From Thermoplasmata archaeon (GTDB lineage Archaea; Thermoplasmatota; Thermoplasmata; Halarchaeoplasmatales; Halarchaeoplasmataceae), in the NCBI GenBank assembly GCA_046540335.1, contig JBKHFH010000001.1, forward strand, positions 8,045-72,044: a stretch of DNA of 64,000 nt. Reading direction: 5' to 3'. Below, one piece after another: positions 1 to 34,485 of the stretch. The notes under the pieces are model-generated. The model did not search any database, was not told the origin of the DNA, and was given only the letters and a program-made list of their open reading frames with translations. Within the stretch, counting starts at the first letter, position 1, and each line of letters begins with the position of its first letter. The position numbers and the translations under genes were made by a program.

Positions 1-103
1 GATTCATAATACCGGAAAGCACAACCCTTTTATACCACTTGGATTCTTAAGCGAAACCGCGCTATAAAACTCACTTCAGCAACATTAACATGGAGGAAAC
101 ACT

Positions 104-610
104 TTGCCTGAGGAAAAAGAAGATCAAGAAGAGGATGATTTCCAATACATCGTCCGGATGATGAATACCGACCTTGACGGAGATAAGCTAGTAGTCTATG
201 CTCTGAAAGACATAAAAGGAGTAGGCACTAGGGTCGCCGAGATGGTGGTCAACTCCACCGATGTGGATCCAAATGCCAAAATAGGATATCTAGAAGAGGA
301 AGATATAGATAAAGTTAAAAAATCTCTAGTCAATTTCACCGATCAGGCTCCATCGTGGGCCGTGAACAGAAAAAGAGACCCTGTAACTGGGGACAATGAC
401 CACGTACTCAAGAACGAGCTAGACACCGTCCACAGAGAAGATATAAACAGGATGCAGAAGATCAGTTCTTATAAAGGTATCAGACACGAGCGCGGTCAAA
501 AGGTCCGAGGGCAGAGAACGAAATCCAATGGAAGAACAGGTATGGAACTCGGAGTTGAAAAGAAGGTCGCTCGGGCTCAAGCTAGCGCAGGCGGCGAAGA
601 AGAGGAGTGA
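104..610 (+). CDS. rps13: 30S ribosomal protein S13 (uS13), with acidic C-terminal tail
   Basis: Typical S13 motifs (GVGTRVAEMV, KGIRHERGQKVRGQRTKSNGRTG). First gene of the conserved archaeal S13-S4-S11-RpoD operon. Confidence 0.9.
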   Translation: MPEEKEDQEEDDFQYIVRMMNTDLDGDKLVVYALKDIKGVGTRVAEMVVNSTDVDPNAKIGYLEEEDIDKVKKSLVNFTDQAPSWAVNRKRDPVTGDNDHVLKNELDTVHREDINRMQKISSYKGIRHERGQKVRGQRTKSNGRTGMELGVEKKVARAQASAGGEEEE

Positions 611-627
611 TCTAGAGGTGACATGAC

Positions 628-1224
628 ATGGGAGATCCAAAATTCAGTAGAAAAAAATTCGAAAAACCATCACACCCTTGGCAGGAAGAGCGTATAAAAG
701 AAGAGAACGATTATATCAGACATTATGCTCTGAAGAACAAAAAAGAATTCTGGAAAGCTAGATCCATCTTGAAGAACATACGGGCACAAGCAAGGAATCT
801 TCAAGCTCGCCTGAGGTACGGGGAAAAGCAGGCTAGAGAAGAGATGGATGCGCTTCTTGAAAAATTGAAGCATAAAGGATATCTTAAAGGCCAGGATCAT
901 ACTCTCAACGATGTTTTGAACTTGGGCGTTGAAAATATATTGAACAGAAGATTACAGACATTGGTCTATCACAAGGGATTGGCTCACTCAGCGAATCAGG
1001 CGCGGCAGTTCATCATCCACGGCCATATATCTGTCAACGGAAGAAAGGTTACGGTCCCGAGTTATATCGTTAATGAGGAAGAAGAGTCGACCATAGCTTA
1101 TTACCAAAATTCACCGCTTTCGGATGAACTCCATCCCGAGAGACCAGAAGAGGAAGTCACGCCGACTAGGATCCCAAAGATGATCGAAAATGACCAGGGT
1201 CAAGATAGCTATAATAGGAGATGA
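628..1224 (+). CDS. rps4: 30S ribosomal protein S4 (uS4)
   Basis: Archaeal S4 N-terminus ([17 protein letters not shown]) and an S4 RNA-binding domain. Operon position. Confidence 0.9.
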
Positions 1225-1613
1225 AATTTATGGGTAAATGGGGAATAGCTCACGTATACGCTTCTTACAACAATGTGATAATAACTATCACGGATATCAC
1301 AGGTGCTGAGACTCTCGCTAAATATTCAGGAGGAATGGTCGTAAGACAGGACAAAGACCAGTCATCACCTTATGCAGCGATGGAAGCAGCCGAAAAGGCT
1401 GTAAAGGAGGCAAAGGATAAAGGCGTAACTAAGTTACATGTTAAGATAAGAGCTCCCGGAGGCAGTAAATCTAGGTCTCCCGGACCAGGTTCTCAGGCCG
1501 CTATACGGGCCTTTGCCAGATCGGGTATGAAGATAGGTACTATAGAAGATGTTACACCGATACCCCATGATTCCACAAAAGCTAAAGGTGGAAGAAGGGG
1601 CCGACGTGTGTAG
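1221..1613 (+). CDS. rps11: 30S ribosomal protein S11 (uS11)
   Basis: S11 motifs ([21 protein letters not shown] ... KGGRRGRR). Overlaps S4 by 4 nt. Confidence 0.9.
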
Positions 1614-1631
1614 AGATAAGAAGGGTAAAAG

Positions 1632-2468
1632 ATGGAAATAGAAGCAAGAAAACTGGACGAAAGGAAAGCAGAATTATTGTTGTCAGACACTAATCCACCT
1701 ATGGCGAACGCACTGAGAAGAGTCTTGGTTGCTGATATACCGAAATTGGCTATTGAGGACGTCGAATTCCATCTGGGGACGATAGGTGGTGATGAGGATG
1801 AAAAGGAGTACGAAAGTGCGGCACCGCTTTTCGACGAGATAATAGCACATAGATTAGGGATGCTGCCCATCCCAACCGATCTAGAACTGTTCAGTTATAG
1901 GGACGAATGCCAGGAATGCGGCGGTGAAGGATGTCCGAACTGTACCGTGATATACAGCCTGAACAAGAAAGGGCCCTGCACGGTTTATTCTGGAGATCTC
2001 ATACCTGTGGGAGAGAACGACTTAAGACCAGTTGATGATCTCATCCCGATCGTGAAACTCAATGAAGATCAGGCTCTTCTGATGTACGCTACCGCTGAAC
2101 TCGGAACGGCCAAAGAACACGCTAAGTGGCAGCCGACGAGCGGTGTCTCCTACAAATATTATCCAGAGATAGATATCGATCAAAGTGAATGCAACGAGTG
2201 TGAAGAGTGCGTGGATGTCTGCCCTGTCGATATACTAGAGATCGAAGATGGAGAATTGGTGGTGACCGACGTAGAAAAATGCAAGCTTTGCTCCGCATGT
2301 GAAGAAGCCTGTGGCAGAGACGCTATTACCGTCGAAGGCCGCGATGACAAGTTCATACTCACCTTTGAGACCGATGGTTCTTTGGATACTGAACAAACAT
2401 TGAAGAAGGGACTCGAAGTGCTCGAGCAAAAGTTCGAGGATATGGTCGACCTCATAGAGGATATCTAG
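1632..2468 (+). CDS. rpoD: DNA-directed RNA polymerase subunit D (Rpo3) with ferredoxin-like 4Fe-4S insertion domain
   Basis: RpoD dimerisation motifs plus two CxxCxxCxxxCP cluster motifs (CNECEECVDVCP, CKLCSACEEAC) and a CxxCx5CxxC segment. Canonical position after S11. Confidence 0.88.
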   Translation: MEIEARKLDERKAELLLSDTNPPMANALRRVLVADIPKLAIEDVEFHLGTIGGDEDEKEYESAAPLFDEIIAHRLGMLPIPTDLELFSYRDECQECGGEGCPNCTVIYSLNKKGPCTVYSGDLIPVGENDLRPVDDLIPIVKLNEDQALLMYATAELGTAKEHAKWQPTSGVSYKYYPEIDIDQSECNECEECVDVCPVDILEIEDGELVVTDVEKCKLCSACEEACGRDAITVEGRDDKFILTFETDGSLDTEQTLKKGLEVLEQKFEDMVDLIEDI

Positions 2469-2652
2469 AAACTTCTGTCTATTCAATCAACAGATTTTAA
2501 ATATTTGAGATAGTTCTCTATCCACAAAAATAAGAAGAGAAAACAATTAATCTTTAGTGTGAGTGATGCAGAAAACCTTTCACACCCAACGCGAGTTACG
2601 CGGAAGTGATTTCCACTAACACGCAAGTTTCACTCGTAAACTCGTTCAACTT

Positions 2653-2664
2653 GCGAGGGTAGCC
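2653..2664 (+). repeat. Partial duplicate of tRNA-Leu nt 1-12 (GCGAGGGTAGCC), 52 nt upstream of the tRNA, embedded in an imperfect hairpin
   Basis: Exact 12-mer match to the tRNA 5' end at 2717-2728. The intervening sequence can pair GCGAG/CTCGC and CCGAGG/CCTCGG. Confidence 0.6.
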
Positions 2665-2716
2665 GAGGAATAAAATATTCCTCATTTCCCCTCGGTTTCT
2701 CGCATACGCTTCAAAC

Positions 2717-2801
<85 letters not shown>

Positions 2802-2907
2802 TTCAATTATCTTTCTGGATTTTTAGAGAAGGAGAAAAGTAAAGAGGAAATTTGTATACAACTTTATAGCTAATTAGAACCTTGCAAAAATATATGATAA
2901 GCTGTTA

Positions 2908-3099
2908 GTGAGGATATACGCCGACTCCTTCAAAAAGGATATTGCCATGGGTTATGGGGCTAGAGAATCCATAAGTAAGCTGGAGTTCCACTTTCAGGAC
3001 AACCTCCTAGCGAGGACATACAATAAGCTCAGACACATACGGCAGGGTGGTATTCTACTTCACCTGAAATTGAATCTAGATTTTGACGAGTTCGCCTGA
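2908..3099 (+). CDS. Hypothetical small ORF (63 aa) in the AT-rich spacer of the island; may be non-coding
   Basis: ORF track only. No recognisable motifs. Confidence 0.15.
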   Translation: MRIYADSFKKDIAMGYGARESISKLEFHFQDNLLARTYNKLRHIRQGGILLHLKLNLDFDEFA

Positions 3100-3400
3100 G
3101 ATCTAGCGGGAAAGACACAAGCAGGATGAAAACGAGTGGATTATAGTTGATTTAGAGAAAAAAGACTTTTATAAACTGCTTCTATTAGGATTAGCAATCA
3201 TTCACCCTTTTTTGGAAGAATAAAGCATAAGTGCAGATGATCTAATAGAGATTTACGATCGGCTGATCTCAACGAGACAAGAAATGACTTGAGTGCCGAC
3301 TAAGTTTTGATGAATGACTTGGACGAAAATACAGCAGGGTATATCGATTAAAATGACCCAGATACTGATGGATGAAAACCGATAGGTGAGAGATATAAGG

Positions 3401-3775
3401 CAGTATCACTCTTTCTCTTTGTATCCGGTTTTAGAGAGTAATTCGTCCATCTGCGCCGAATTCACACATTCCATCGCAACCTGGAGAAGGATGGCTTTAA
3501 AGAACTCTTCACCTTGATGGCTCTTTTTACATTCTGGACATATCTTTTTTTGGGGTAAATGTTTCCTGAAATCGGGATCATCTTTCATTTCATTGTATAT
3601 CTCTTCGGCAAAATCGATCAATTCGTTTCTTAACCCGGAGTCTTTAACGGCTCTCGAAACTTCTCTTCCTATACCTCTCATGTACCTGCGAGTGAAAACG
3701 AGGTCTCCCCAAACATCATCTCTGGTACCTATAGGGTTGTCCTCGTACATCGAGATCTCCTGGCAGGGCTGGTAA
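3401..3775. repeat. Direct repeat block A (copy 1), about 93-95% identical to 8031-8405. Covers the 3' half of the regulator gene
   Basis: Read directly: long collinear matching stretches with scattered mismatches. Confidence 0.85.
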
Positions 3776-4107
3776 TAACAGTACGACCTCCTTCCCATCT
3801 TATTTTTTCTTTTCTCTTCAGCTTCACCTTCCGTGGGACGACCCGGTTCGCTTTCTACATCCCGTTTTTCCTTTTTCTTATTGATTATACCTTGTCTCCA
3901 GAGATCTTTCACCGCAGAATAAATCGTAGATAGAGGCTGCCCGGTCTCTTCGGATATCTCCTGAGCCGTTATGCCTTCAAGACCGTTATTTCTGATAGCC
4001 TTCAAGCAGGCCCAAGTAGCTTCATTTCCGAGTACGTCTGCAGCCATGTCGCTGCTTACGGGGAAAAAATTGAGGTATTCCTTTTTCTCCATCGTATCAC
4101 GTTTCAT
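3406..4107 (-). CDS. Transcriptional regulator: N-terminal winged-HTH, Lys/Glu-rich linker, C-terminal domain with a CPECKK motif. Divergently transcribed from the surface-protein gene
   Basis: wHTH-like segment GITAQEISEETGQPLSTIYSAVKDLWRQGII. A C-terminal 3' fragment of the gene is duplicated at 8031-8415. Confidence 0.6.
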   Translation of the reverse strand: MKRDTMEKKEYLNFFPVSSDMAADVLGNEATWACLKAIRNNGLEGITAQEISEETGQPLSTIYSAVKDLWRQGIINKKKEKRDVESEPGRPTEGEAEEKRKNKMGRRSYCYYQPCQEISMYEDNPIGTRDDVWGDLVFTRRYMRGIGREVSRAVKDSGLRNELIDFAEEIYNEMKDDPDFRKHLPQKKICPECKKSHQGEEFFKAILLQVAMECVNSAQMDELLSKTGYKEKE

Positions 4108-4357
4108 GATTATGTAATTATATTATTTTAAATTTTTGTAATAACAAAATTATGTACCTAACGACTCGAGATTGGGTTGATATATTTTCTAGGGCATGAG
4201 AATTAAGTGAGGTAGATAAAATGAGAAGCCTAAAAATCGGGTTAGGAAGGAACCGCATGAGAAGGGAAATGAACGTAGAGATCGAATTGCAAGACGACCA
4301 GAAAAAGAAAAACTTTTTACGAAGAAGCAATAAGAAACCGTAGATAAGGTGATTAAT
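4108..4357. promoter_or_regulatory. Divergent promoter region between the regulator and the surface-protein gene. AT-rich, and contains a 40-aa upstream ORF (4221-4343, MRSLKIGLGRNRMRREMNVEIELQDDQKKKNFLRRSNKKP)
   Basis: Intergenic between divergent genes. Duplicated nearly identically upstream of the paralogous gene at 8461-8715. GGTGA Shine-Dalgarno before the ATG at 4358. Confidence 0.4.
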
Positions 4358-4432
4358 ATGAAAAAGAAAATATTTGTGTTTACTATCGCGCTTTCTCTGC
4401 TGCTCAGCGGGACGCTTGTCGTGGTCGGAGGC
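4108..4432. repeat. Direct repeat block B (copy 1), about 98% identical to 8461-8790. Covers the promoter, upstream small ORF and first 25 codons (signal peptide) of the surface-protein gene
   Basis: Read directly: about 270 nt identical from atatattttctagggcatgag to gtcgtggtcggaggcga. Confidence 0.9.
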
Positions 4433-5254
4433 GAACCGCGAGAGATGAACGAAAGGACAGAGATAAATCAAGATAGAACACCGACGGCTGAAGCCGAAGT
4501 AGATGATTCTGATCTGGGAAATATTTCTAATGAATATCCGTTCAAGGATGAGTATCCATCGGTAGGAGAGCTTTATGGATGGTATGAGGATTTGGAGAAA
4601 GAATATCCAAATTTGATACAAAATCACAGCTATGGGGAATCTTACAAGGGTTTAGATCTTTATGCGTGGGAGATAACCGCCGATAATGATACTGTTGTAG
4701 AGGAGAAGCCCACGGTTTTGGTCGATGCAACTATACATGCAAGAGAATGGTCAACCCCGCAGGTAGCGGCTTACTTCACTTGGAGACTCTTAGATGAATA
4801 CGACACAAATGAGACCATCAACTGGATTGTGAACAATAGGAGGATCTTTGTAGTTCCGATGGTGAATCCCGATGGGTATATTTACGACGGAAATGGAACA
4901 TTAGAGGAAAGAGAATATTGGCGAAAAAATCGCAATGACTCGACTCCTACAGACGCTATCGGTGTTGATCTAAATAGAAATTGGGATACCCATTGGGTGA
5001 AAGGTGATGATGAACCTTCAAATGAGACATATCATGGAGATGCTCCTTTTTCAGAAGCTGAAACTTATCACCTCAAGGAATTCATGATCGAAAATGAGAT
5101 AGATTCATATCAGAACCTTCACTCTCACTGGGGAACTTTATTGATTCCCTCTTCTAATATGACCGATCCAACACCACATGATGATTGGTACAGGGGTACG
5201 GCAGAACACACGACTTCTTTAACGACTATGTTGGGAGAGGACGAACAGTACTAA
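4358..5254 (+). CDS. N-terminal part of a secreted M14 zinc-carboxypeptidase / GLUG-repeat / PGF-CTERM surface protein: signal peptide plus most of the M14 domain, ending at an in-frame TAA (5252-5254)
   Basis: Signal peptide MKKKIFVFTIALSLLLSGTLVVVGG. M14 motifs HAREW, NPDGY, DLNRNW, HSHW. The ORF track start is GTG 4349; the ATG is at 4358. The reading frame continues in-frame past the TAA. Confidence 0.7.
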   Translation: MKKKIFVFTIALSLLLSGTLVVVGGEPREMNERTEINQDRTPTAEAEVDDSDLGNISNEYPFKDEYPSVGELYGWYEDLEKEYPNLIQNHSYGESYKGLDLYAWEITADNDTVVEEKPTVLVDATIHAREWSTPQVAAYFTWRLLDEYDTNETINWIVNNRRIFVVPMVNPDGYIYDGNGTLEEREYWRKNRNDSTPTDAIGVDLNRNWDTHWVKGDDEPSNETYHGDAPFSEAETYHLKEFMIENEIDSYQNLHSHWGTLLIPSSNMTDPTPHDDWYRGTAEHTTSLTTMLGEDEQY

Positions 5255-5275
5255 TACGGTCAACCTTATGAGGAA

Positions 5276-7840
5276 TTGGGTTATAGTCCTCCAGGGGCAG
5301 CTGATAGTTGGGTCTATGATGAAATAGGTGCACAAGCATATACATATGAGATTTACACCGGTGAGTATGAAGAAGATTTTGCTGAAGGATTCTACCCTCC
5401 AAAAGAAGACATCATGACCATCAATGAAGATCTAGATGATTCTCTTATATATCAGACCAGAGTAGCTGATGCTGATCTGGGAGATGGAGAAGATTTAGAG
5501 CATCCACCAGTCCCTTATTTGGTCTACGGTACGCTGGAAAATGAGGGGGGCGATCATCTTTCAGATATAGAGATTGAAGTAGAGAATCAAGAGACTGGGG
5601 AGAATCTATCTGTTGAGACAAACAGCAAAGGTTATTACGAACTAAATCTTGCGAATTTGATTGACCATGGTTATGAAATCGGTGACACTCTTTGCATTCA
5701 AATCGATCCAGGTACCACCATGATGAATTTTGACGTTGACGGAAACTGGGGTAAAAGGATAGACCTTGAATATACAGAGGGACCTCAAGTTACCACCGAA
5801 AGCGTATCCGCCTTGACTAACGAATCTGCAGAGTTTGAAGGTAGAGTTGAACTTGGAAATATGAGTTCCGTAGAAGGTTATTTCCAGTACCGTATGGAAG
5901 GGGAAGAGAGTTGGCAAGAAAGTGAGATAGAAGTCATCGAAGAGAATCGAACGTATGATATGGTCATAGATGGTATGGAATCAGATGAGAGCTATGAGGT
6001 TAGAGCATCTATAAAGTGTAACGAAGAGGAACAAGATTTTGGTAGGATATTGAGTTTTATAACTACGATTCATACATTAAACCTTGACTCAAGTATCGGT
6101 GGTGAAGTGATCAAACCTGGAGAGAGTGAATTTGAATATACATACGGCTCTGAGGTGACTATCGAAGCTTCTGCTGAGGAAAATTATGATTTCATCGAAT
6201 GGATCGGTGATGTCGATACAGTAGAAGATACTGAATCATCAGAAACAACGGTCGGGATCACTGATGATATAGAGATAACAGCACTTTTCCAAACAGGTGA
6301 AGGGTCTGAAGGAGATCCATACTTGATCGAAAATAGTCATCACCTGCAGAAGATGGAAGACAATTTAGAAGCTCATTATGAATTGGCTACCGATATAGAT
6401 GCGAGTGAAACTGAAGACTGGAACGATGGAAGAGGATTCGATCCAGTAGGTGATCAATATAATCCATTCGAAGGCACATTTGATGGTGGTAGGTATAAAA
6501 TCGATGACCTTCATATTAACCAAGAAAATATGGAATATACAGGTCTTTTTGGAGTCATAGGTGAAGGTAGCGAGGTAACGAATTTGGCCCTTGTAAATAT
6601 AAATGTAACCGGGAGTCATACTAGATCACATTGGGTCGGTGGACTTGCAGGAGGAAATTTAGGATTGATAAATAACACTTCCGTCTCAGGAGATGTGAAT
6701 AGTGGTGACGTCGCTGGTGGACTGATAGGGCAGGGCCCAGGCACAGTCAAAAATTCATATTCGACAGGGGATGTGACTGGAGCGCGATTTGTAGGAGGGT
6801 TGCAGGGAACGAGCAGCGGAAGTATCTTTACTTCTTACTCTTCTGCGAGAGTTGAAGGGACCGGTTCCGTCGGTGGCATTTTAGGTGGAAGTTGGGGAGT
6901 TATCGAGAACAGTTATGCTACAGGAGAAGTTGTCGGAGAAGATAATGTAGGTGGATTAGTTGGTCAGATAGGTATCCGGGTTAGAGGTTACAGTGATAGT
7001 GGCGAAGTTATCGATTCGTATTCTATAGGTAATGTTTCGGGTGATGATGAAGAAACACTCGGAGGTTTAGTAGGTTTCATAGAGCTAGGAGAGGTAACAG
7101 GTTCCTTCTGGAACGTAGAAACATCGGGGCAAGACGAATCTGATGGAGGTACTGGGCTACCCACTGCAGAGATGGTCAGAAGAGAGACTTTCACCGATGC
7201 AGGTTGGGATCTCGAAGAGAATTGGAATATCATCGAAGATGAAACTTATCCTTTCCTGCAGTGGCAAAAGGAAGATACATATCCCTACGCACCTGAACTA
7301 TACGAATTGACGATAAACATCGAAGGACAAGGCACGGTAGAAGTCTATGGAGAAGAAGTAGAAGACGGATGGACTCAAGAATACGTAGAAGGAACGGAGT
7401 TGACCCTCGAAGCGATCCCAGATGAAGGTTACGAGTTCGATGAATGGACAGGGACGGATCAGACAGGTGATGAGATAAACATAACGATGGACGAAGATAA
7501 AGATATCACGGCCCACTTCGAGGAGATCACATACAACCTGACATTTGTGGTAACAGACGAAGAGGGTGAGGCAATCGAGGGAGCAACAGTCACTGTAAGT
7601 GATGAGGAAGTGGAGACAAATGGGAGTGGCGAAGCGACCTTTGAACTTACGCAGGGAGATTACGACTACGAGGTCACCCATGACGACTATGAAAAAGAAA
7701 ATGGTATGATAGATAGCCTTGATGAAGAGAAGAAGGAAACTGTTGAACTTGAAGAGAGTAATGGAAGTCCCGGGTTTACTGTAGTACTGCTAGCACTCGG
7801 TGCGGTTATAGCCGTTGCGATCTATAAAAAGAAACGTTGA
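5276..7840 (+). CDS. C-terminal part of the same protein (same frame as 4358-5254): end of the M14 domain, transthyretin-like regulatory domain, InlB-B-repeat-like domains, DIDxSxTxxW domain, about 8 GLUG repeats, PGF-CTERM sorting signal
   Basis: Sequence from 5255 (YGQPYEELGYSPPGAADSWVYDE...AYTYEIYTGE) completes the M14 fold with Tyr248/Glu270 equivalents. GGLxG repeats. C-terminus PGFTVVLLALGAVIAVAIYKKKR. Confidence 0.7.
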   Translation: MGYSPPGAADSWVYDEIGAQAYTYEIYTGEYEEDFAEGFYPPKEDIMTINEDLDDSLIYQTRVADADLGDGEDLEHPPVPYLVYGTLENEGGDHLSDIEIEVENQETGENLSVETNSKGYYELNLANLIDHGYEIGDTLCIQIDPGTTMMNFDVDGNWGKRIDLEYTEGPQVTTESVSALTNESAEFEGRVELGNMSSVEGYFQYRMEGEESWQESEIEVIEENRTYDMVIDGMESDESYEVRASIKCNEEEQDFGRILSFITTIHTLNLDSSIGGEVIKPGESEFEYTYGSEVTIEASAEENYDFIEWIGDVDTVEDTESSETTVGITDDIEITALFQTGEGSEGDPYLIENSHHLQKMEDNLEAHYELATDIDASETEDWNDGRGFDPVGDQYNPFEGTFDGGRYKIDDLHINQENMEYTGLFGVIGEGSEVTNLALVNINVTGSHTRSHWVGGLAGGNLGLINNTSVSGDVNSGDVAGGLIGQGPGTVKNSYSTGDVTGARFVGGLQGTSSGSIFTSYSSARVEGTGSVGGILGGSWGVIENSYATGEVVGEDNVGGLVGQIGIRVRGYSDSGEVIDSYSIGNVSGDDEETLGGLVGFIELGEVTGSFWNVETSGQDESDGGTGLPTAEMVRRETFTDAGWDLEENWNIIEDETYPFLQWQKEDTYPYAPELYELTINIEGQGTVEVYGEEVEDGWTQEYVEGTELTLEAIPDEGYEFDEWTGTDQTGDEINITMDEDKDITAHFEEITYNLTFVVTDEEGEAIEGATVTVSDEEVETNGSGEATFELTQGDYDYEVTHDDYEKENGMIDSLDEEKKETVELEESNGSPGFTVVLLALGAVIAVAIYKKKR

Positions 7841-8030
7841 AGTATGGCTTGGGAGTAGAATCAAACCGTTTCCCCTTCATTTCTTTTATTTTTCTAAGAA
7901 TAAGTCCTTTCAACGTATCTAGAGTTTTTATCGCTCTCTTGCTACTGCTCAGAGGATTACTTTTTGCTGTTGTAGGCGAGAGAATAAAAAGAAAGTACAG
8001 ATAAGGGCAACCGAGAAAATGAACTATCAC

Positions 8031-8405
8031 TCTTTCTATTTATATCCGGTTTCAGAGAGCAAATCGTCCATCTGCGCCGAATTCACACACTCCACCGCCA
8101 CCTGGATAGAATGGCTTTAAAGAACTCTTCACCTTGATGGCTCTTTTTACATTCTGGACATATCTTTTTTTGGGGTAAATGTTTCCTGAAATCGGGATCA
8201 TCTTTCATTTCATTGTATATCTCTTCGGCAAAATCGATCAATTCGTTTCTTAACCCGGACTCTTTGACAGCTCTCGAAACTTCTCTTCCTATACCTCTCA
8301 TGTACTCGCGTGTGAAAACGAGGTCGCCCCAAACATCATCTCTGGTACCTATGGGGTTGCCCTCGTCTATCGAGATCTCCTGAGACGTGATAGCGGAGTA
8401 ATATT
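8031..8405. repeat. Direct repeat block A (copy 2)
   Basis: Collinear match to 3401-3775. Confidence 0.85.
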
Positions 8406-8415
8406 TCTGATAGCC
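8083..8415 (-). pseudogene. Truncated second copy of the regulator gene. Only the C-terminal roughly 110 codons are present, with no wHTH domain
   Basis: Minus-strand translation ...YQKYYSAITSQEISIDEGNPIGTRDDVWGDLVFTREYMRGIGREVSRAVKESGLRNELIDFAEEIYNEMKDDPDFRKHLPQKKICPECKK matches residues 110-220 of the 3406-4107 product. Homology ends abruptly upstream. Confidence 0.65.
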
Positions 8416-8460
8416 CCCATGCAGTTTTAGGCGGAGATCTTCTTTTTAATTCTATCAGTT

Positions 8461-8790
8461 TTCCTAATTCTGTAATTACATTATTTTATATTTTTGTAAT
8501 AACAAAATTATGTACCTAACGACTCGAGAGTGGGTTGATATATTTTCTAGGGCATGAGAATTAAGTGAGGTAGATAAAATGAGAAGCCTAAAAATCGGGT
8601 TAGGAAGGAACCGCATGAGAAGGGAAATGAACGTAGAGATCGAATTGCAAGACGACCAGAAAAAGAAAAACTTTTTACGAAGAAGCAATAAGAAACCGTA
8701 GATAAGGTGATTAATATGAAAAAGAAAATATTTGTGTTTACTATCGCGCTTTCTCTGCTGCTCAGCGGGACGCTTGTCGTGGTCGGAGGC
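8461..8790. repeat. Direct repeat block B (copy 2): promoter, upstream small ORF and signal-peptide codons
   Basis: About 98% identical to 4108-4432. Confidence 0.9.
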
Positions 8791-10346
8791 GAGGTGATGG
8801 ATGAAAGTGTTAGTAAAGATTTTAAAGAAGTTGAATCTGAGGCTACAGAAATCCAGGATTGGCACGACTTAGACGAGATAAGAGATGACTTAAGCAGCGA
8901 CTACGTTCTAGTTGACGAACTTGATGAAATACAGATGGTTATGAGGACTACAATGCTCAAAGAGAAGATCATGAAGTAGTATATTTTGCAGGATCAGACG
9001 AACACTGGAAAGACGGCGATACTATAGAAATAGAATATGGTGAAGATGAATATGATTCTGTTCTATCAGTCGAAGATGAAGAGGGCAACCCGATCAGTTA
9101 TACGGTAGAGCATCCTACAATAACAATAGAGGTGGACACCAGAGAAAGCCGTTTAGGTGTAAACTTCGAGAACGCCGTCGTAGGTTGGGAACCGATAGGG
9201 AACGATGAGAATCCATTTAACGGTACTTTCGACGGTAACGGTCATGATATAAGTGATTTAAATATAAAACGCGGTGGAACGTCCGGTATCGGAATATTTG
9301 GTTTTACCGGTCAAGAAGTTGAAATCAGAGATATCGGTCTTGTCGACTTAGAGGTGAAAGGATTAGGATACGTAGGTGGACTCGTGGGCTATAACAAGGG
9401 CAATATTTCCGATTCCTATGTAACAGGTGAGGTGAGCGGAGTTAGTTCTGTAGGCGGATTAGTTGGACTAAGCTTAGAAGGCGAGGTGAAGACCTCATAT
9501 GCGACAACTGATGTGAGCGGTATGGAGGGAATTCATGTAGGAGGACTCGTGGGACTAAGCCATAGTACGGTAAACGCATCGTATGCGACCGGTGACGTTA
9601 GTGGAGAGGGTCATTTAGGAGGACTCGTGGGACTAAGCCATAGTACGATATACGGATCGTATGCGACCGGTGATATTAACGGTGAAGAAAATGTGGGAGA
9701 ACTTGTAGGAAATAATGCAGGAATCTCGAAAGATTCTATTGAGAATTCCTATGCGACTGGTAACGTTAACGGTGAAGAATTTGTAGGAGGTCTCGTTGGA
9801 CATAACAAAGCTAACATTGAGAATTCGTATGCATCTGGGGACGTTAACGGCGAAAAATTTGTAGGAGGATTAGTAGGATTAAATTCTGCTGGACCTGGCC
9901 CAGGTTACCCTGATATGCCTTTTCCTTCAACTGTCAAAACGTCTTATGCGTCCGGTGAAGTGACCGGTGAAGAAAATGTGGGAGGACTAGTCGGATTGAG
10001 CGAGTCAGGCAATGTCACCCATTCTTACTGGGATATCGAAACTTCTGGAATTGAGGAGAGCGACGGTGGAACAGGCCTAACAACGGATGTGATGACAGGT
10101 GAAGAAGCTCCTAAAAACATGGACGGTTTTGACTTCGAAGAGGTCTGGGAGACTGTTGGGGAGGATGATGAAGATGCTGAAGAGAACGGCTATCCTATCT
10201 TACAGGAGTTGGACAGAGAAGAACAGCTCGAGGCTCAAAATATTTATGGAGATGATGACGGGATCCCAGGATTCACATCGTTACTCCTCTTAGTAGCTTC
10301 GATCATCGCAGTAGCTATCTACCAGAAGAAAAGTAAAAAGCGGTGA
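8716..10346 (+). pseudogene. Paralogous GLUG-repeat / PGF-CTERM surface protein without an M14 domain. Disrupted by a frameshift near 8930-8980: frame-1 ORF 8707-8979 carries the signal peptide, and the frame-0 ORF opens at 8928
   Basis: Identical signal peptide. N-terminal piece IQDWHDLDEIRDDLSSDYVLVDELD parallels IENSHHLQKMEDNLEAHYELATDIDAS of the paralog. The downstream frame carries WEPIGNDENPFNGTFDGNG, about 10 GGLVG repeats, and the C-terminus GIPGFTSLLLLVASIIAVAIYQKKSKKR. Confidence 0.65.
9540..9695 (+). repeat. Intragenic tandem duplication (2 x 78 nt = 2 x 26 aa GLUG units, near identical)
   Basis: ggaggactcgtgggactaagccatagtacg... occurs at 9540 and again at 9618 with few substitutions. 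Confidence 0.7.
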
Positions 10347-10489
10347 AAAGGATAGATACAACTGCTGCAACGAGAGATTAAAAAAACCCATTTCCTACTT
10401 CATTTTTTCTTATCAAAATGATGATTGAGTGAAATAGAGGATTTATTGTACAGAGATGATTTGAACAGTGGATTTGTATACAAATAGGC

Positions 10490-10511
10490 GTTAAATTCCC
10501 ATCCCTCGCAT
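10490..10511 (+). repeat. Degenerate direct repeat of the tRNA-Leu 3' end (17 of 22 nt, core cccNtccctcgcat). Candidate right boundary (attR-like) of the island
   Basis: gttaaattcccatccctcgcat at 10490-10511 versus ggttcgaatcccttccctcgcat at 2780-2802. Confidence 0.35.
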
Positions 10512-10590
10512 CTTTATTCTCTAATATTTTCTTAAAAGTATCCATAAGATAACCACCGAATCTTTAAGTATCCCAATATATAGCGGAACG

Positions 10591-11759
10591 ATGAAGAAAG
10601 TAAAACAGAAAACGGTAGCTCCAGCTTTCATATCTTTAGCTTGGTTGATCATATTTATCGGTAGATTGACTGGGCCCACCCTGTTAGTTGATATCGAGGA
10701 AAGTTTGAGTATCTCAGATGCTGAAGCAGGTATTGCCCTCTCAGCGATGTGGTTCCTCTATGGCGTCATGCAGTTCCCTGGAGGTGCTCTTTCAGACTCC
10801 TTCGGCAGGAAAAAAATCATCCTAGTTTCCATAGCTTCGTTCGGAGTAGCATCGATTCTTATAGGTACTACTCTTAACTACATAATGATGATAGTGACTT
10901 TCTCTCTACTAGGATTGGCGTTCCGGTCTTTTCCCCTCACCTAGCTTGACCATGTTATCTGAACTCTATAGAGATAAGAAGGGCAAGGCTTTAGGTATAA
11001 GATCGGGATTCGGCAGCCTTTCTGGTTTAGCTCCTATGGGTCTCCCTGTTCTGGCTTTTATGATAGGTTGGAGGAATATCTTTCTTTTCTACTCGGTAGT
11101 AGCGTTAGCTATAGGATATCTATTTTACGTTTTTGTTGAAGAGACTTTAGATGAACTCAAAAAGAGGTCCGGTCTCACCCAACTGAAGATGGGCCTCCGT
11201 TCCCTAACAGAAAAAAGAGACTTCTTTCATGTTCCTCATAAATCTGATCGTTTCATTTGCATGGATAGGGATGCTTTCCTGGTTCCCAACATATATACAG
11301 AAAAGCAAAGGCTTCAGTCCGGAGATAGCAGGAATACTTTTCTCTATAATATTATTAGGAGTAACAATTTTAAAACCGATCTTAGGGCACTTTTCCGATA
11401 GAGTGAATAAACTGTTCTTGATCCTTTTTCTGCTCATCACCGCCTCTATTTCGCTCTATCTTCTGACGATAACTGAAGGTCTCTTCTCATTAGGTATAAT
11501 CGCTTTCTTATTTTCACAGACAGGGGCTTTCTATCCGATAAGGACGTCCTATCTGACTGAAAAGTGGTACTCCAAGAACACTGGAACAAAACTGGGCGTC
11601 TTCAGATCTGGCATCATCTTGCTGGGTAGTCCGATCTCTGCGGTGATAGGATGGACTAAAACCATCTATAGTTTCGATACAGCGATTTTTCTCGTAGCTG
11701 GACTTTTATCTTTAGCCGCGGTACTGGTCCTAGGGAAGTTGATAATAGGGAGAAGATAG
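10591..11759 (+). pseudogene. MFS transporter gene disrupted by two frameshifts (three consecutive ORFs in three frames)
   Basis: ORFs 10591-10944, 10946-11401 and 11229-11759 together give about 390 aa of 12-TM MFS protein (GALSDSFGRKK motif). Confidence 0.65.
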
Positions 11760-11828
11760 ATCAAACTTAGATAACTTGTTCTAATTAACAAAAAAGATTT
11801 GTAGAATAGACTCTTTTCAAATGATAAT

Positions 11829-12581
11829 ATGATGGGAAGATTGGATAATAAAAAAGCTCTTATCACTGGTTCTTCAAGAGGTATAGGAAGAGCTATAGCA
11901 AAAAAGTTCGCAGAAGAAGGAGCTAAAGTAGGATTGAATTATCATTCTAGCGATGAGAAAGCACGTGAAGTTCTAGACTATGTCAATGATCATTCAGGTG
12001 GTCTGCTTCTCAAAGGGGATGTGAGTGAAAAAAGCGATTGTGAACGGATCGTACGGGAATTTGTAGATGAGTATGATGGCTTAGATATCCTTGTCAATAA
12101 TGCTGGGATACTAAAGTTAAAGAATTTAGAAAACTCTACTATCGAAACGTTCGATCGAACTATAGACGTCAATGTAAGAGGTCCGTTCATGATGTCTAAA
12201 TATTCCTTGGAACACCTAAAAGATTCAAACTCGGGCAGGATAATCAATATGTCATCTCATTGGGCATTCAGAGGTTCCGATCAGGCTACATCTTACGTTG
12301 TTAGTAAAACAGCACTCATCGGCTTGACCAGGGCTTTAGCTCTAGAGCTAGGACCGAAAGGTATAACTGTCAATGGTATCGCTCCTGGAACGATAGAGAC
12401 TGATATGGTCTCCGATCGCTACTCAAAAGAGGAAAAGAAGACCAGGATCAAAGAGATACCAGTTAAAAGACTTGGAAAACCAGAGGATATCGCAGATACC
12501 GCTCTCTTTTTAGCATCGGATGAAGGAGATTATGTCAACGGAGAGATCATAGGTGTCAACGGCGGGGTAACTATCCATTGA
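11829..12581 (+). CDS. Short-chain dehydrogenase/reductase, FabG-like
   Basis: TGSSRGIGRAIA cofactor motif, NNAG, and a catalytic S...YxxxK motif (YVVSK). Confidence 0.85.
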   Translation: MMGRLDNKKALITGSSRGIGRAIAKKFAEEGAKVGLNYHSSDEKAREVLDYVNDHSGGLLLKGDVSEKSDCERIVREFVDEYDGLDILVNNAGILKLKNLENSTIETFDRTIDVNVRGPFMMSKYSLEHLKDSNSGRIINMSSHWAFRGSDQATSYVVSKTALIGLTRALALELGPKGITVNGIAPGTIETDMVSDRYSKEEKKTRIKEIPVKRLGKPEDIADTALFLASDEGDYVNGEIIGVNGGVTIH

Positions 12582-12600
12582 AGTGAATTGATAAAAGCAG

Positions 12601-12685
12601 CGCCGAGAAGGGGATTCGAACCCCTGTGGTGCAAGGCACCACGAGATCTCCAATCTCGCGCCGTACCAGGCTAGGCTATCTCGGC
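12601..12685 (-). tRNA. tRNA-Ser (anticodon GGA), class II
   Basis: Minus strand reads GCCGAGATAGCCTAGCCTGGTA...CGAGA-TTGGAGA-TCTCG, then a long variable arm TGGTGCCTTGCACCACA, T-arm GGGGTTCGAATCCCC, and acceptor TCTCGGC. Confidence 0.85.
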
Positions 12686-31870: not shown

Positions 31871-32497
31871 ATGGCAGAAGATATTGTTGACGAAGAAGAG
31901 GAAGAGGAATCGATGGAGACCTACCCCAGCATGTACAAGTATATAGAGAAGGCATGGGAACAACCAAAAGAGGGATATCTCAAAGAATTGCAGAGAAAAA
32001 GACTCAAACAGTGGAGAAGAGACGACAATTTTAAAAGGATAGAGAGACCGACCAGACTAGATAAGGCCCGGAAATTGGGTTACAAAGCCAAGCCAGGTTT
32101 CGTGATAGCGAGGGCGAAGGTCCGAAGAGGCAATCTGAGAAAAACTAGACCTACTAGAGGTAGAGGACCTAAAAGGATGGGCGTGAAAAAGATCACCCCG
32201 AACAAGAACCTGCAGTGGATCGCAGAAGAAAGGACTTCAAGAAATTATCCGAATCTTAGAGTGCTGAATTCGTATTGGGTCGGAGAAGACGGTCGCAAGA
32301 AGTACTTCGAAGTGATAATGGTCGACCCGGATCATCCTTCCATAAAGAACGATCCAGACATCAATTGGATCTGCGGAAAAGATCAGAAGAGAAGAGTCTT
32401 CAAGGGAAAGACATCCGCTGGTAGGAAAGCTAGAGGTCTGAGAAGTAAAGGGACGGGTGCTGAAAGATCGAGACCCTCCAAAGAGAAGACGTCCTAG
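31871..32497 (+). CDS. rpl15e: 50S ribosomal protein L15e (eL15)
   Basis: [35 protein letters not shown] ... NSYWVGEDG motifs. Confidence 0.88.
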
Positions 32498-33669: not shown

Positions 33670-34485
33670 GTGCTCCAAATGGAAGAAGGAGATCTTATCT
33701 ACGTGGATTACGATATATGGGTCGTGCCTGACAACGAAGACGAAGAACCTACTCTGTTCGATACCACAGATAAAGAGAAGGCTAAAGAAGAAGAGATATT
33801 TGATGAGGATTCCCAATATGGGCCTCGTCCGTTAAAGATCGGAGGGGAGAATATAGCCGAAGGTTTTTCAGAAGCTCTTCAGGAAGCCGAGATAGATGAA
33901 GAAGGTTCTGTTGAAGTCCCTCCTGAAAAAGGCATAGGGAACAGAGATCCAGAAAAGATAGAGCTTTACAGCAGGCGTGAAATGGAAAGGAGAGATATCG
34001 AACCGGTCCAGGGAAAACAGGTTGAGATTGACAATAGAAGAGGCAGGATTATCCAGGCTACAGCCGGAAGAGTACGTGTGGACTTCAACCATCCTTTGGC
34101 GGGTAAAACATTGCGATATGACTACAAGATAACCGAAAGACCCGAGAGCCCTGAAGAGATAGCGGAGGGCATACTCGAGATGGATTACCAAAAAGCAGAC
34201 TATGAAATAGAAGCTACAGAGGACGGTATCGACATAGTGCTGCCTGAGCAGTGCAAATACGATCAGAACTGGTTCGTAGCTAAATACAGGATAGTCGGAG
34301 ATCTGAGGGAACACCTAGAGGCGAAGAATATCCGCTTTATCGAGGAATATGTGGAGAAGGAAGAAGACGATATCGAAGAGGAATTCGAGGAGTTAGAGGA
34401 AGAAGCCGAAGAGGAATTGGAAGCGGATGATGAAGCTGAAGAGGATGAAGAATCTGCGGAAGACGAAGAAGATACCGCGGAGTAA
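33670..34485 (+). CDS. FKBP-type peptidyl-prolyl cis-trans isomerase (SlyD-like with insert-in-flap domain) and long acidic C-terminal tail
   Basis: GDLIYVDYDIWV ... LFDTT ... PLKIGGENIAEGFSEAL ... VDFNHPLAGKTLRYDYKITE. Confidence 0.8.
   Translation: MLQMEEGDLIYVDYDIWVVPDNEDEEPTLFDTTDKEKAKEEEIFDEDSQYGPRPLKIGGENIAEGFSEALQEAEIDEEGSVEVPPEKGIGNRDPEKIELYSRREMERRDIEPVQGKQVEIDNRRGRIIQATAGRVRVDFNHPLAGKTLRYDYKITERPESPEEIAEGILEMDYQKADYEIEATEDGIDIVLPEQCKYDQNWFVAKYRIVGDLREHLEAKNIRFIEEYVEKEEDDIEEEFEELEEEAEEELEADDEAEEDEESAEDEEDTAE

Follow-up and report, generated by a model that had tools for sequence, protein, structure and literature searches.

The gene at positions 4358 to 7840 of the window, the 64,000-nucleotide stretch of DNA analyzed here as a whole, encodes a surface M14 zinc carboxypeptidase of Candidatus Saliniplasma (order 'Ca. 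Halarchaeoplasmatales'), a halophilic archaeon of the Thermoplasmatota, and has very probably been disrupted by a recent C-to-A nonsense mutation, making it a young pseudogene or loss-of-function allele. Searches of the literature yielded taxonomic background alone. ORF analysis revealed a frame of 1160 codons on the forward strand, cut only once, by an in-frame TAA at 5252-5254 that separates the ORFs 4349-5254 and 5276-7840 within the same frame. The downstream part is represented in NCBI by an 854-aa ORF starting at TTG 5276. A preliminary description of this DNA had joined both ORFs into an M14 surface-protein gene of roughly 1160 aa broken by a single in-frame TAA, and this is borne out by an intact public allele of exactly 1160 aa (P0122, MFW5898625.1), retrieved by cluster look-up from a Ca. 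Saliniplasma sp. MAG. The locus and the joined translation are laid out as follows:

3406-4107, reverse strand: divergent winged-helix regulator, weak TrmB and HTH_24 matches
4358-7840, forward strand: whole disrupted surface M14 carboxypeptidase gene of 1160 codons, the internal TAA counted
4358-5254, forward strand: N-terminal fragment of 298 aa (NCBI MFP4142823.1 and MFP4184595.1), signal peptide and partial M14 domain
5252-5254, forward strand: in-frame TAA with A at base 5253; contigs L005 and L002 have C there (TCA, Ser), and L003 and L004 read TCG (Ser)
5255-7840, forward strand: downstream gene part with Y309, E331, all accessory domains, and the tail
7763-7840, forward strand: C-terminal sorting-type tail SPGFTVVLLALGAVIAVAIYKKKR and stop codon, scored with CTERM models
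N-terminus, forward strand: signal peptide, from the layout of the joined translation
aa 73-358, forward strand: M14 domain (Pfam)
about aa 389-431, forward strand: CarboxypepD_reg-like domain, weak
about aa 573-646, forward strand: InlB-B/Flg_new_2
about aa 720-930, forward strand: GLUG repeats
aa 982-1057, forward strand: second Flg_new_2
aa 1064-1115, forward strand: CarboxypepD_reg
C-terminus, forward strand: PGF-type tail

On the joined translation, the Pfam model Peptidase_M14 (PF00246) matches residues 73-358 in one unbroken stretch, covering profile positions 2-282 of 286 with an E-value of 4.8e-61 and a score of 207.3 bits (cutoff 21.6). The stop, at residue 299, falls inside this match, in line with the earlier claim that the M14 domain continues across it. 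All motifs quoted at that time were found as well, with HAREW, NPDGY, DLNRNW, and HSHW located 5' and YTYEIYTGE located 3' of the stop. Flg_new_2 (two stretches), CarboxypepD_reg, and Glug were also matched by Pfam in the joined translation, and no Propep_M14 prodomain was detected in it. The protein composition is strongly acidic and halophile-like.

The N-terminal fragment carries the zinc ligands H127, E130, and H255 as well as the substrate-binding residues R189, N206, and R207, all of them aligning with their counterparts in carboxypeptidase T. The equivalents of CPA Tyr248 and Glu270 (CPT Tyr255 and Glu277) are Y309 and E331, both encoded 3' of the TAA. The preliminary description had correctly placed these two downstream of the stop but had assigned both to AYTYEIYTGE; the carboxypeptidase T alignment puts the Tyr248 equivalent at Y309, within ELGYSPPGAADSW. 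Each of these residues, from H127 to E331, is invariant or nearly so among 57 family members. The TAA at codon 299 splits the catalytic Glu and Tyr from the zinc site, with which a complete M14 enzyme would have them in the same polypeptide. Judged by its sequence, the gene is a member of the M14 family and the predicted product of this strain is an incomplete enzyme.

The C-terminal tail consists of PGF, about 17 hydrophobic residues, and a basic KKKR at the extreme C-terminus. The anchor formerly called PGF-CTERM has the motif of this class but not the profile: the PGF_CTERM model (TIGR04126) gave 8.9 bits (cutoff 24.5), which rules out canonical membership. Homolog tails reached 7.2 bits or no match with the same model. 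With 21.2 bits for Heimdall-CTERM (NF045529, cutoff 24) and 16.4 bits for Loki-CTERM (NF033507, cutoff 19.9), the tail is nearer to these two than to PGF-CTERM, yet under both cutoffs. The tails of the homolog P0003 (24.5 bits) and of the neighbouring GLUG protein (20.9 bits) are just over the cutoffs (Loki-/Heimdall-CTERM models). For the GLUG repeats (PF07581, cutoff 20.5), 29.4 bits were obtained with the whole protein and 41.7 bits, in three stretches, with the repeat segment alone. A firm number of eight repeats, as given before, could not be upheld, as about six to seven GGLxG units are visible and three are scored individually by Pfam. The architecture had also been called unusual. We found at least 57 M14 surface proteins in related Thermoplasmatota, 13 of them with a PGF-type tail; on this sequence comparison the architecture is not unusual, because the lineage has many M14 enzymes with tails of this kind.

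The contig of the intact allele (L005) aligns with window positions 2716-8544 (5.8 kb) at 99.897% identity with six SNPs and has a C at 5253, restoring TCA for Ser. On protein level, the window differs from P0122 only at residues 5, 299 (stop versus Ser299), and 554; hence all three in-gene differences are protein-changing (I5V, Ser299 to stop, W554C). The codon is TCA also in the nearest other species (L002, 91.5% nucleotide identity), and Ser occupies the residue-299 column in 43 of the 57 family members. No stop is present at this residue in any of the 57 relatives, each having a sense codon there. Exact-pattern scans for both alleles returned no match in JGI metagenome contigs and GTDB representative genomes, and a related-locus scan of genome contigs returned the L002 contig only. 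In comparison to L002, dN/dS amounts to 0.15 upstream of the stop and to 0.27 downstream, the low downstream value being one that stop readthrough would produce as well. Lineage-specific changes in the downstream part comprise 21 synonymous and 12 nonsynonymous ones for the window, and 21 and 17, respectively, for L002. A second lesion was not found in the 3.5 kb gene. Since dN/dS is low before as well as after the stop, the lesion is recent; a long-standing pseudogene is ruled out by dN/dS together with the lineage-specific substitution counts.

Three origins of the stop had been put forward earlier, and the TCA codon shared by the nearest species and the strain of 99.9% identity favors the first of them, a very recent nonsense mutation. 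The second, a sequencing, consensus, or assembly error with TCA as true codon and an artefactual A at 5253, is quite unlikely. A lone single-base substitution in an otherwise lesion-free gene with low downstream dN/dS, and a C at 5253 in a near-identical genome, would suit such an error, and G-to-T/C-to-A changes are a known class of oxidative-damage artefacts; such artefacts, however, affect few reads and hardly ever prevail in the consensus. The TAA allele is moreover carried by GCA_046539565.1 (L006), with 99.95% identity over 12.6 kb, and by the Logan assembly of SRR19844286 (L001), in which 3736 of 3736 bases are identical and whose contig is reported in two samples. Together with the source contig, this gives three assemblies, although they may share a common read set and thus may not be independent. 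Their breakpoints differ between the source contig (86 kb), L006 (22 kb), and L001 (3.7 kb), and position 5253 is unique sequence away from the repeats in which the assemblies conflict. An error of a single assembly is unlikely because the TAA is found in three.

The third origin, programmed stop-codon readthrough or recoding, would have the TAA at 5252 sometimes decoded to yield the full-length surface protein. It is consistent only with the open frame and the purifying-type divergence across the 861 codons past the stop, and we consider it highly improbable. The stop occurs in none of the 57 relatives, the 99.9% identical strain included, and an ordinary recent knockout is preferred over unusual decoding because the latter keeps the gene intact. 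TAA is a normal terminator here: the 72 long ORFs of the window, ribosomal-protein genes included, end with TGA (43), TAA (18), or TAG (11), and TAA terminates 17 ORFs besides this one, with T as next base in six, some of these ordinary genes lying in the ribosomal-protein operon. The two examples named earlier, the genes ending at 34485 and 40160, were confirmed. An alternative genetic code was rejected on the grounds that all three stops end ordinary genes, those for ribosomal proteins included, and a suppressor tRNA in view of the ordinary anticodons of the four tRNAs in the window. The 121-nt segment surrounding and following the stop folded no better than shuffled sequences (z = +0.40), and no stimulatory RNA structure was found downstream; neither a conserved stop nor a leaky context with downstream structure marks the site. 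Rfam gave no match within or near the gene, and scanning for a single stop flanked on either side by an open stretch of 90 codons or more yielded no other convincing split gene. We know of no TAA-decoding system in archaea; selenocysteine uses UGA and pyrrolysine UAG.

A refinement of the nonsense mutation rather than a competitor to it is a mixed population, in which both alleles are present in the sampled community, the MAG consensus happens to be TAA, and the lineage still has a working copy. Intact and broken alleles in genomes of 99.9% identity, both derived from environmental-population MAGs, are in agreement with this. The intact allele nevertheless comes from another assembly, and we regard coexistence in one sample as possible, if somewhat unlikely.

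The nonsense mutation itself is shown by these comparisons to be a C-to-A transversion at 5253, by which TCA, the conserved codon for Ser299, became TAA. Translation would therefore end after 298 residues. The resulting product would keep the signal peptide and the zinc ligands while missing the catalytic Tyr and Glu, the final part of the fold, the accessory domains, and the anchor, and should be inactive. A restart at TTG 5276 would give a product devoid of the signal peptide and presumably cytoplasmic. The gene would accordingly be a pseudogene of very recent origin, or else a loss-of-function allele that segregates within the population. From its domain content, the intact protein is presumably exported via Sec and held to the surface by its PGF-type tail, where it may trim C-terminal residues of external peptides for amino acid supply, with the GLUG and InlB-B modules probably forming a stalk or adhesion part.

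The winged-helix regulator adjoins the M14 gene also in L002, L005, and L006. Frameshifts disrupt two neighbouring genes, one for a GLUG surface protein and one for an MFS transporter, which suggests that this stretch tolerates gene loss. The MFS gene is shifted at two sites, about 10940 and about 11211-11216, and an A-run lies at 8927-8929. A further-reaching proposal regards the segment from tRNA-Leu (2717) to tRNA-Ser (12600) as a variable surface-protein island, in which interchangeable surface proteins are expressed from a duplicated cassette that combines regulator, promoter, and signal peptide. In this strain, independent small mutations would then have inactivated the M14-GLUG protease and the adjacent GLUG protein, which might reflect selection to shed surface structures, e.g., receptors of viruses or symbionts, rather than neutral decay. 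We consider this doubtful.

For annotation, the consequence is that one gene underlies both the 298-aa 'M14 family zinc carboxypeptidase' and the 854-aa 'InlB B-repeat-containing protein' at NCBI, each being half of it, and that both entries should carry a pseudogene flag; beyond annotation, the significance is small. As the case illustrates, a near-identical public allele can settle the nature of an in-frame stop in a MAG even when no reads are used, and the broken surface and transport genes clustered here hint that the cell envelope varies at strain level in 'Ca. Halarchaeoplasmatales'.

Among solved structures, the top match is carboxypeptidase T of Thermoactinomyces vulgaris (PDB 1OBR, 3PRT; MEROPS M14, subfamily A), with an E-value of 8.6e-34 and an alignment covering the entire catalytic domain. 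Both proteins have HxxE, WRKNR, DLNRN, and the second zinc His in common, as well as the Tyr in Y-x-x-x-G-x-x-D-W and the Glu in (F/Y)T(F/Y)E. The window protein extends beyond carboxypeptidase T by about 800 residues (β-sandwich, InlB-B, GLUG) and a membrane-sorting tail and, unlike it, is acidic, has no detected Propep_M14, and is truncated by the stop in this strain. Closer counterparts are the M14 family zinc carboxypeptidases of Ca. Saliniplasma and Ca. Natronoplasma (P0122, P0002-P0006), which are intact, in contrast to the window gene. P0002-P0005 share the architecture of M14, Flg_new_2, Glug, and CarboxypepD_reg at 50-76% identity. The C-terminal third differs in P0002 and P0003 (CARDB-like insert, other GLUG units), and P0004-P0006 have a transmembrane segment and a cytoplasmic Cys4 zinc-ribbon-like tail in place of the PGF tail. 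As in ordinary prokaryotic nonsense pseudogenes and strain-level loss-of-function alleles, a single-base change hit a conserved sense codon, a near-identical strain is intact, and a compensating signal is absent; the present case differs from them only in that two neighbouring genes are broken as well.

The gene for a surface M14 carboxypeptidase is interrupted by a single TAA (...CAG TAC TAA TAC GGT...), which parts two ORFs lying in the same frame, as seen in the ORF listing and confirmed by reading the DNA. The features involved are as follows.

3406-4107 (-): winged-helix regulator gene, divergently oriented beside the M14 gene
4358-7840 (+): M14 gene; 1160 codons in conceptual translation, with one internal stop at residue 299
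4349-5254 and 5276-7840: ORFs on either side of the stop
5252-5254: in-frame TAA

A Pfam search of the joined translation matched Peptidase_M14 to residues 73-358 in one stretch (profile 2-282 of 286, 207 bits, E 4.8e-61); therefore, the catalytic domain crosses the stop, as the preliminary description had proposed. The other matches are listed below.

Further Pfam matches in the joined translation
Residues about 573-646 and 982-1057: Flg_new_2 (InlB B-repeat), two stretches
Residues 1064-1115, with a weak match also at about 389-431: CarboxypepD_reg
Glug: also matched in the product

The nearest solved structure is carboxypeptidase T (3PRT/1OBR, E 8.6e-34), whose alignment with the product covers the whole catalytic domain. 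It places the zinc ligands H127, E130, and H255 as well as R189, N206, and R207 on the 5' side of the stop, and Y309 (within ELGYSPPGAADSW) and E331 (within YTYE) on the 3' side, showing that the zinc site lies before the stop and the catalytic Tyr and Glu after it. The catalytic Tyr had been placed in AYTYE, a small error which leaves the argument unaffected, Y309 still being downstream of the stop. Among 57 family members, there is little or no variation at the catalytic residues.

The nature of the stop was settled by an exact-sequence cluster look-up. The two halves of 854 and 298 aa were found in two NCBI MAGs (MFP4142822/3 and MFP4184596/5), and their 90% cluster also contains an intact protein of 1160 aa from Candidatus Saliniplasma sp. 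(P0122, MFW5898625.1). The contig of this allele (L005, GCA_048619855.1) matches window 2716-8544 at 99.897% identity; one of the six SNPs falls at position 5253, where L005 reads C instead of A, i.e., TCA (Ser) instead of TAA. TCA is also present in the nearest other species (L002, JAZKSP010000031.1, 91.5% nucleotide identity), where the regulator is syntenic with the M14 gene, and TCG in contigs from two JGI metagenomes (L003 and L004). A search with the joined protein returned many intact homologs from halophilic Thermoplasmatota MAGs; four of them (P0002, 1286 aa; P0003, 1099 aa; P0004 from Ca. Natronoplasma, 1170 aa; P0005, 1162 aa) are full-length, share the architecture, and read GEDEQY-S-YGQP at the site. 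Across the family, this column holds Ser in 43 of 57 members and a stop in none. Taken together, these alleles identify the stop as a single C-to-A transversion that hit a conserved Ser codon.

Two other origins had been considered. A consensus error at 5253 is possible but unlikely: the site lies in unique sequence, and TAA occurs in the 86-kb source contig of the window, in a 22-kb contig of GCA_046539565.1 (L006; 99.95% identical over window 1-12653), and in a Logan assembly of SRR19844286 (L001; 3736/3736 bases identical to window 4405-8140, listed for 2 samples). Their differing contig breakpoints mark these as separate assemblies, which may nevertheless draw on one read set, and the judgment was made from assembled sequence. 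Apart from swaps between two copies of a repeat, the L006 contig matches the window. Over 12.6 kb, these swaps are three SNPs per regulator copy at matching offsets (3554/3566/3580 and 8174/8186/8200), with T at all six sites in L006, a pattern that resembles an ambiguous consensus between the repeat copies in one or the other assembly.

Programmed readthrough is without support and very unlikely, most weightily because the stop is absent even from the near-identical L005 strain. All three stop codons terminate genes in the window (43 TGA, 18 TAA, and 11 TAG among 72 long ORFs), so that TAA is the normal terminator it was said to be, including for ribosomal-protein operon genes; followed by T, it ends six other ORFs. 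The RNA around and 3' of the stop folds no better than shuffles (z = +0.40), no Rfam family was found there, the tRNAs in the window are ordinary, and the window contains no other convincing in-frame split gene.

The change from TCA to TAA is thus a recent strain-level nonsense mutation in the Ca. Saliniplasma gene, which was already annotated; the feature is real, its explanation ordinary, and the first of the origins originally offered is the one supported. Its recent date is indicated by the absence of a second lesion in 3.5 kb and of any sign of prolonged relaxed selection, in dN/dS against L002 (Nei-Gojobori; 0.15 upstream, 0.27 downstream of the stop) or in lineage-specific changes downstream with L003 as outgroup (21 synonymous/12 nonsynonymous in the window lineage, 21/17 in that of L002). 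The three in-gene differences from the 99.9% identical allele, I5V, Ser299 to stop, and W554C (Trp in P0003-P0006), all change the protein and fit an early relaxation of constraint, being too few for a test.

Taxonomically, the organism falls within 'Ca. Halarchaeoplasmatales', a group of halophilic Thermoplasmatota that was described on the basis of MAGs from soda-saline lake sediment (PMC11332174). Judging by its domain content, the intact protein would be a Sec-exported carboxypeptidase without a prodomain, held at the surface by its PGF-type C-terminal tail and trimming peptides for amino-acid uptake. The 298-aa product would still be exported, yet inactive and unanchored, while a restart at TTG 5276, the NCBI-annotated start, would yield a product without signal peptide.

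Disrupted genes concentrate at 4.3-11.8 kb, the remainder of the window looking intact.

8716-10346: GLUG surface-protein gene, next after the M14 gene (ORFs 8707-8979 and 9132-10346)
10591-11759: MFS transporter gene, broken across three reading frames
10591-10944: MFS part, PF07690 profile 4-99
10946-11401: MFS part, PF07690 profile 107-203
11229-11759: MFS part, PF07690 profile 1-168

The GLUG gene shares the signal peptide of the M14 gene and likewise a PGF-type tail. It carries a 1-nt deletion in or beside the A-run 8927-8929, also present in L006; adding one A restores ...DELDENTDGYEDYN..., colinear across the repaired site with an intact 538-aa homolog (P0123, 78% identity). The spread of PF07690 over three frames implies at least two frameshifts in the MFS gene; the first lies near 10940, and the A6 run at 11211-11216 is a possible site of another. 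A cassette comprising the regulator 3' half, the intergenic promoter region, and the signal peptide is duplicated ahead of the GLUG gene (8025-8382 and 8453-8792 versus 3404-3762 and 4095-4434; 93% and 97.6% identity). About 260 nt encoding the winged-helix (HTH) half are missing from the second copy of the regulator, of which a 72-aa ORF (8083-8301) is the remnant. This clustering fits a dispensable, variable envelope locus; adaptive shedding of surface proteins there is speculative.

Between tRNA-Leu and tRNA-Ser (2717-12685), synteny with L002 and L003 ends at the M14 gene, suggesting a variable surface-protein island. The gene adjoins a 1306-aa S8 peptidase with InlB-B repeats in L002 and is flanked by pheT and a PQQ β-propeller gene in L003. 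Directly upstream of tRNA-Leu (2717-2801), L005 has 37 nt of unrelated sequence (56-92) in place of 193 nt in the window (2523-2715), an indel or small insertion. The M14 gene itself looks mosaic, with 91.5% nucleotide identity to L002 up to about 6516 and a GLUG-repeat region (6516-7296; alignment columns 700-1000) whose protein is nearer that of L003 than that of L002, suggesting recombination within this region. Elsewhere, an eL15-Euryarchaeota ribosomal protein leader (RF03144, 31801-31851 (+), 36.8 bits versus a gathering score of 33.7) sits upstream of ORF 31871-32497.

An anchored carboxypeptidase had been regarded as unusual. Related MAGs contain at least 57 M14 surface proteins, 13 of the 57 with a PGF, hydrophobic, and basic tail and others with different C-terminal modules; the architecture is unremarkable within the lineage. 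The more distant orthologs P0004-P0006 (Ca. Natronoplasma and others) end without a PGF tail in a transmembrane segment and a cytoplasmic Cys4 zinc-ribbon-like tail (CPECD...CENCSHAE), an alternative way of anchoring the same ectodomain. Membership in PGF-CTERM was not upheld, the tail failing the canonical PGF_CTERM model (8.9 bits versus a cutoff of 24.5). The best-matching model, Heimdall-CTERM (21.2 versus 24), and Loki-CTERM (16.4 versus 19.9) also score below their cutoffs, which related tails barely attain; archaeosortase processing is plausible.
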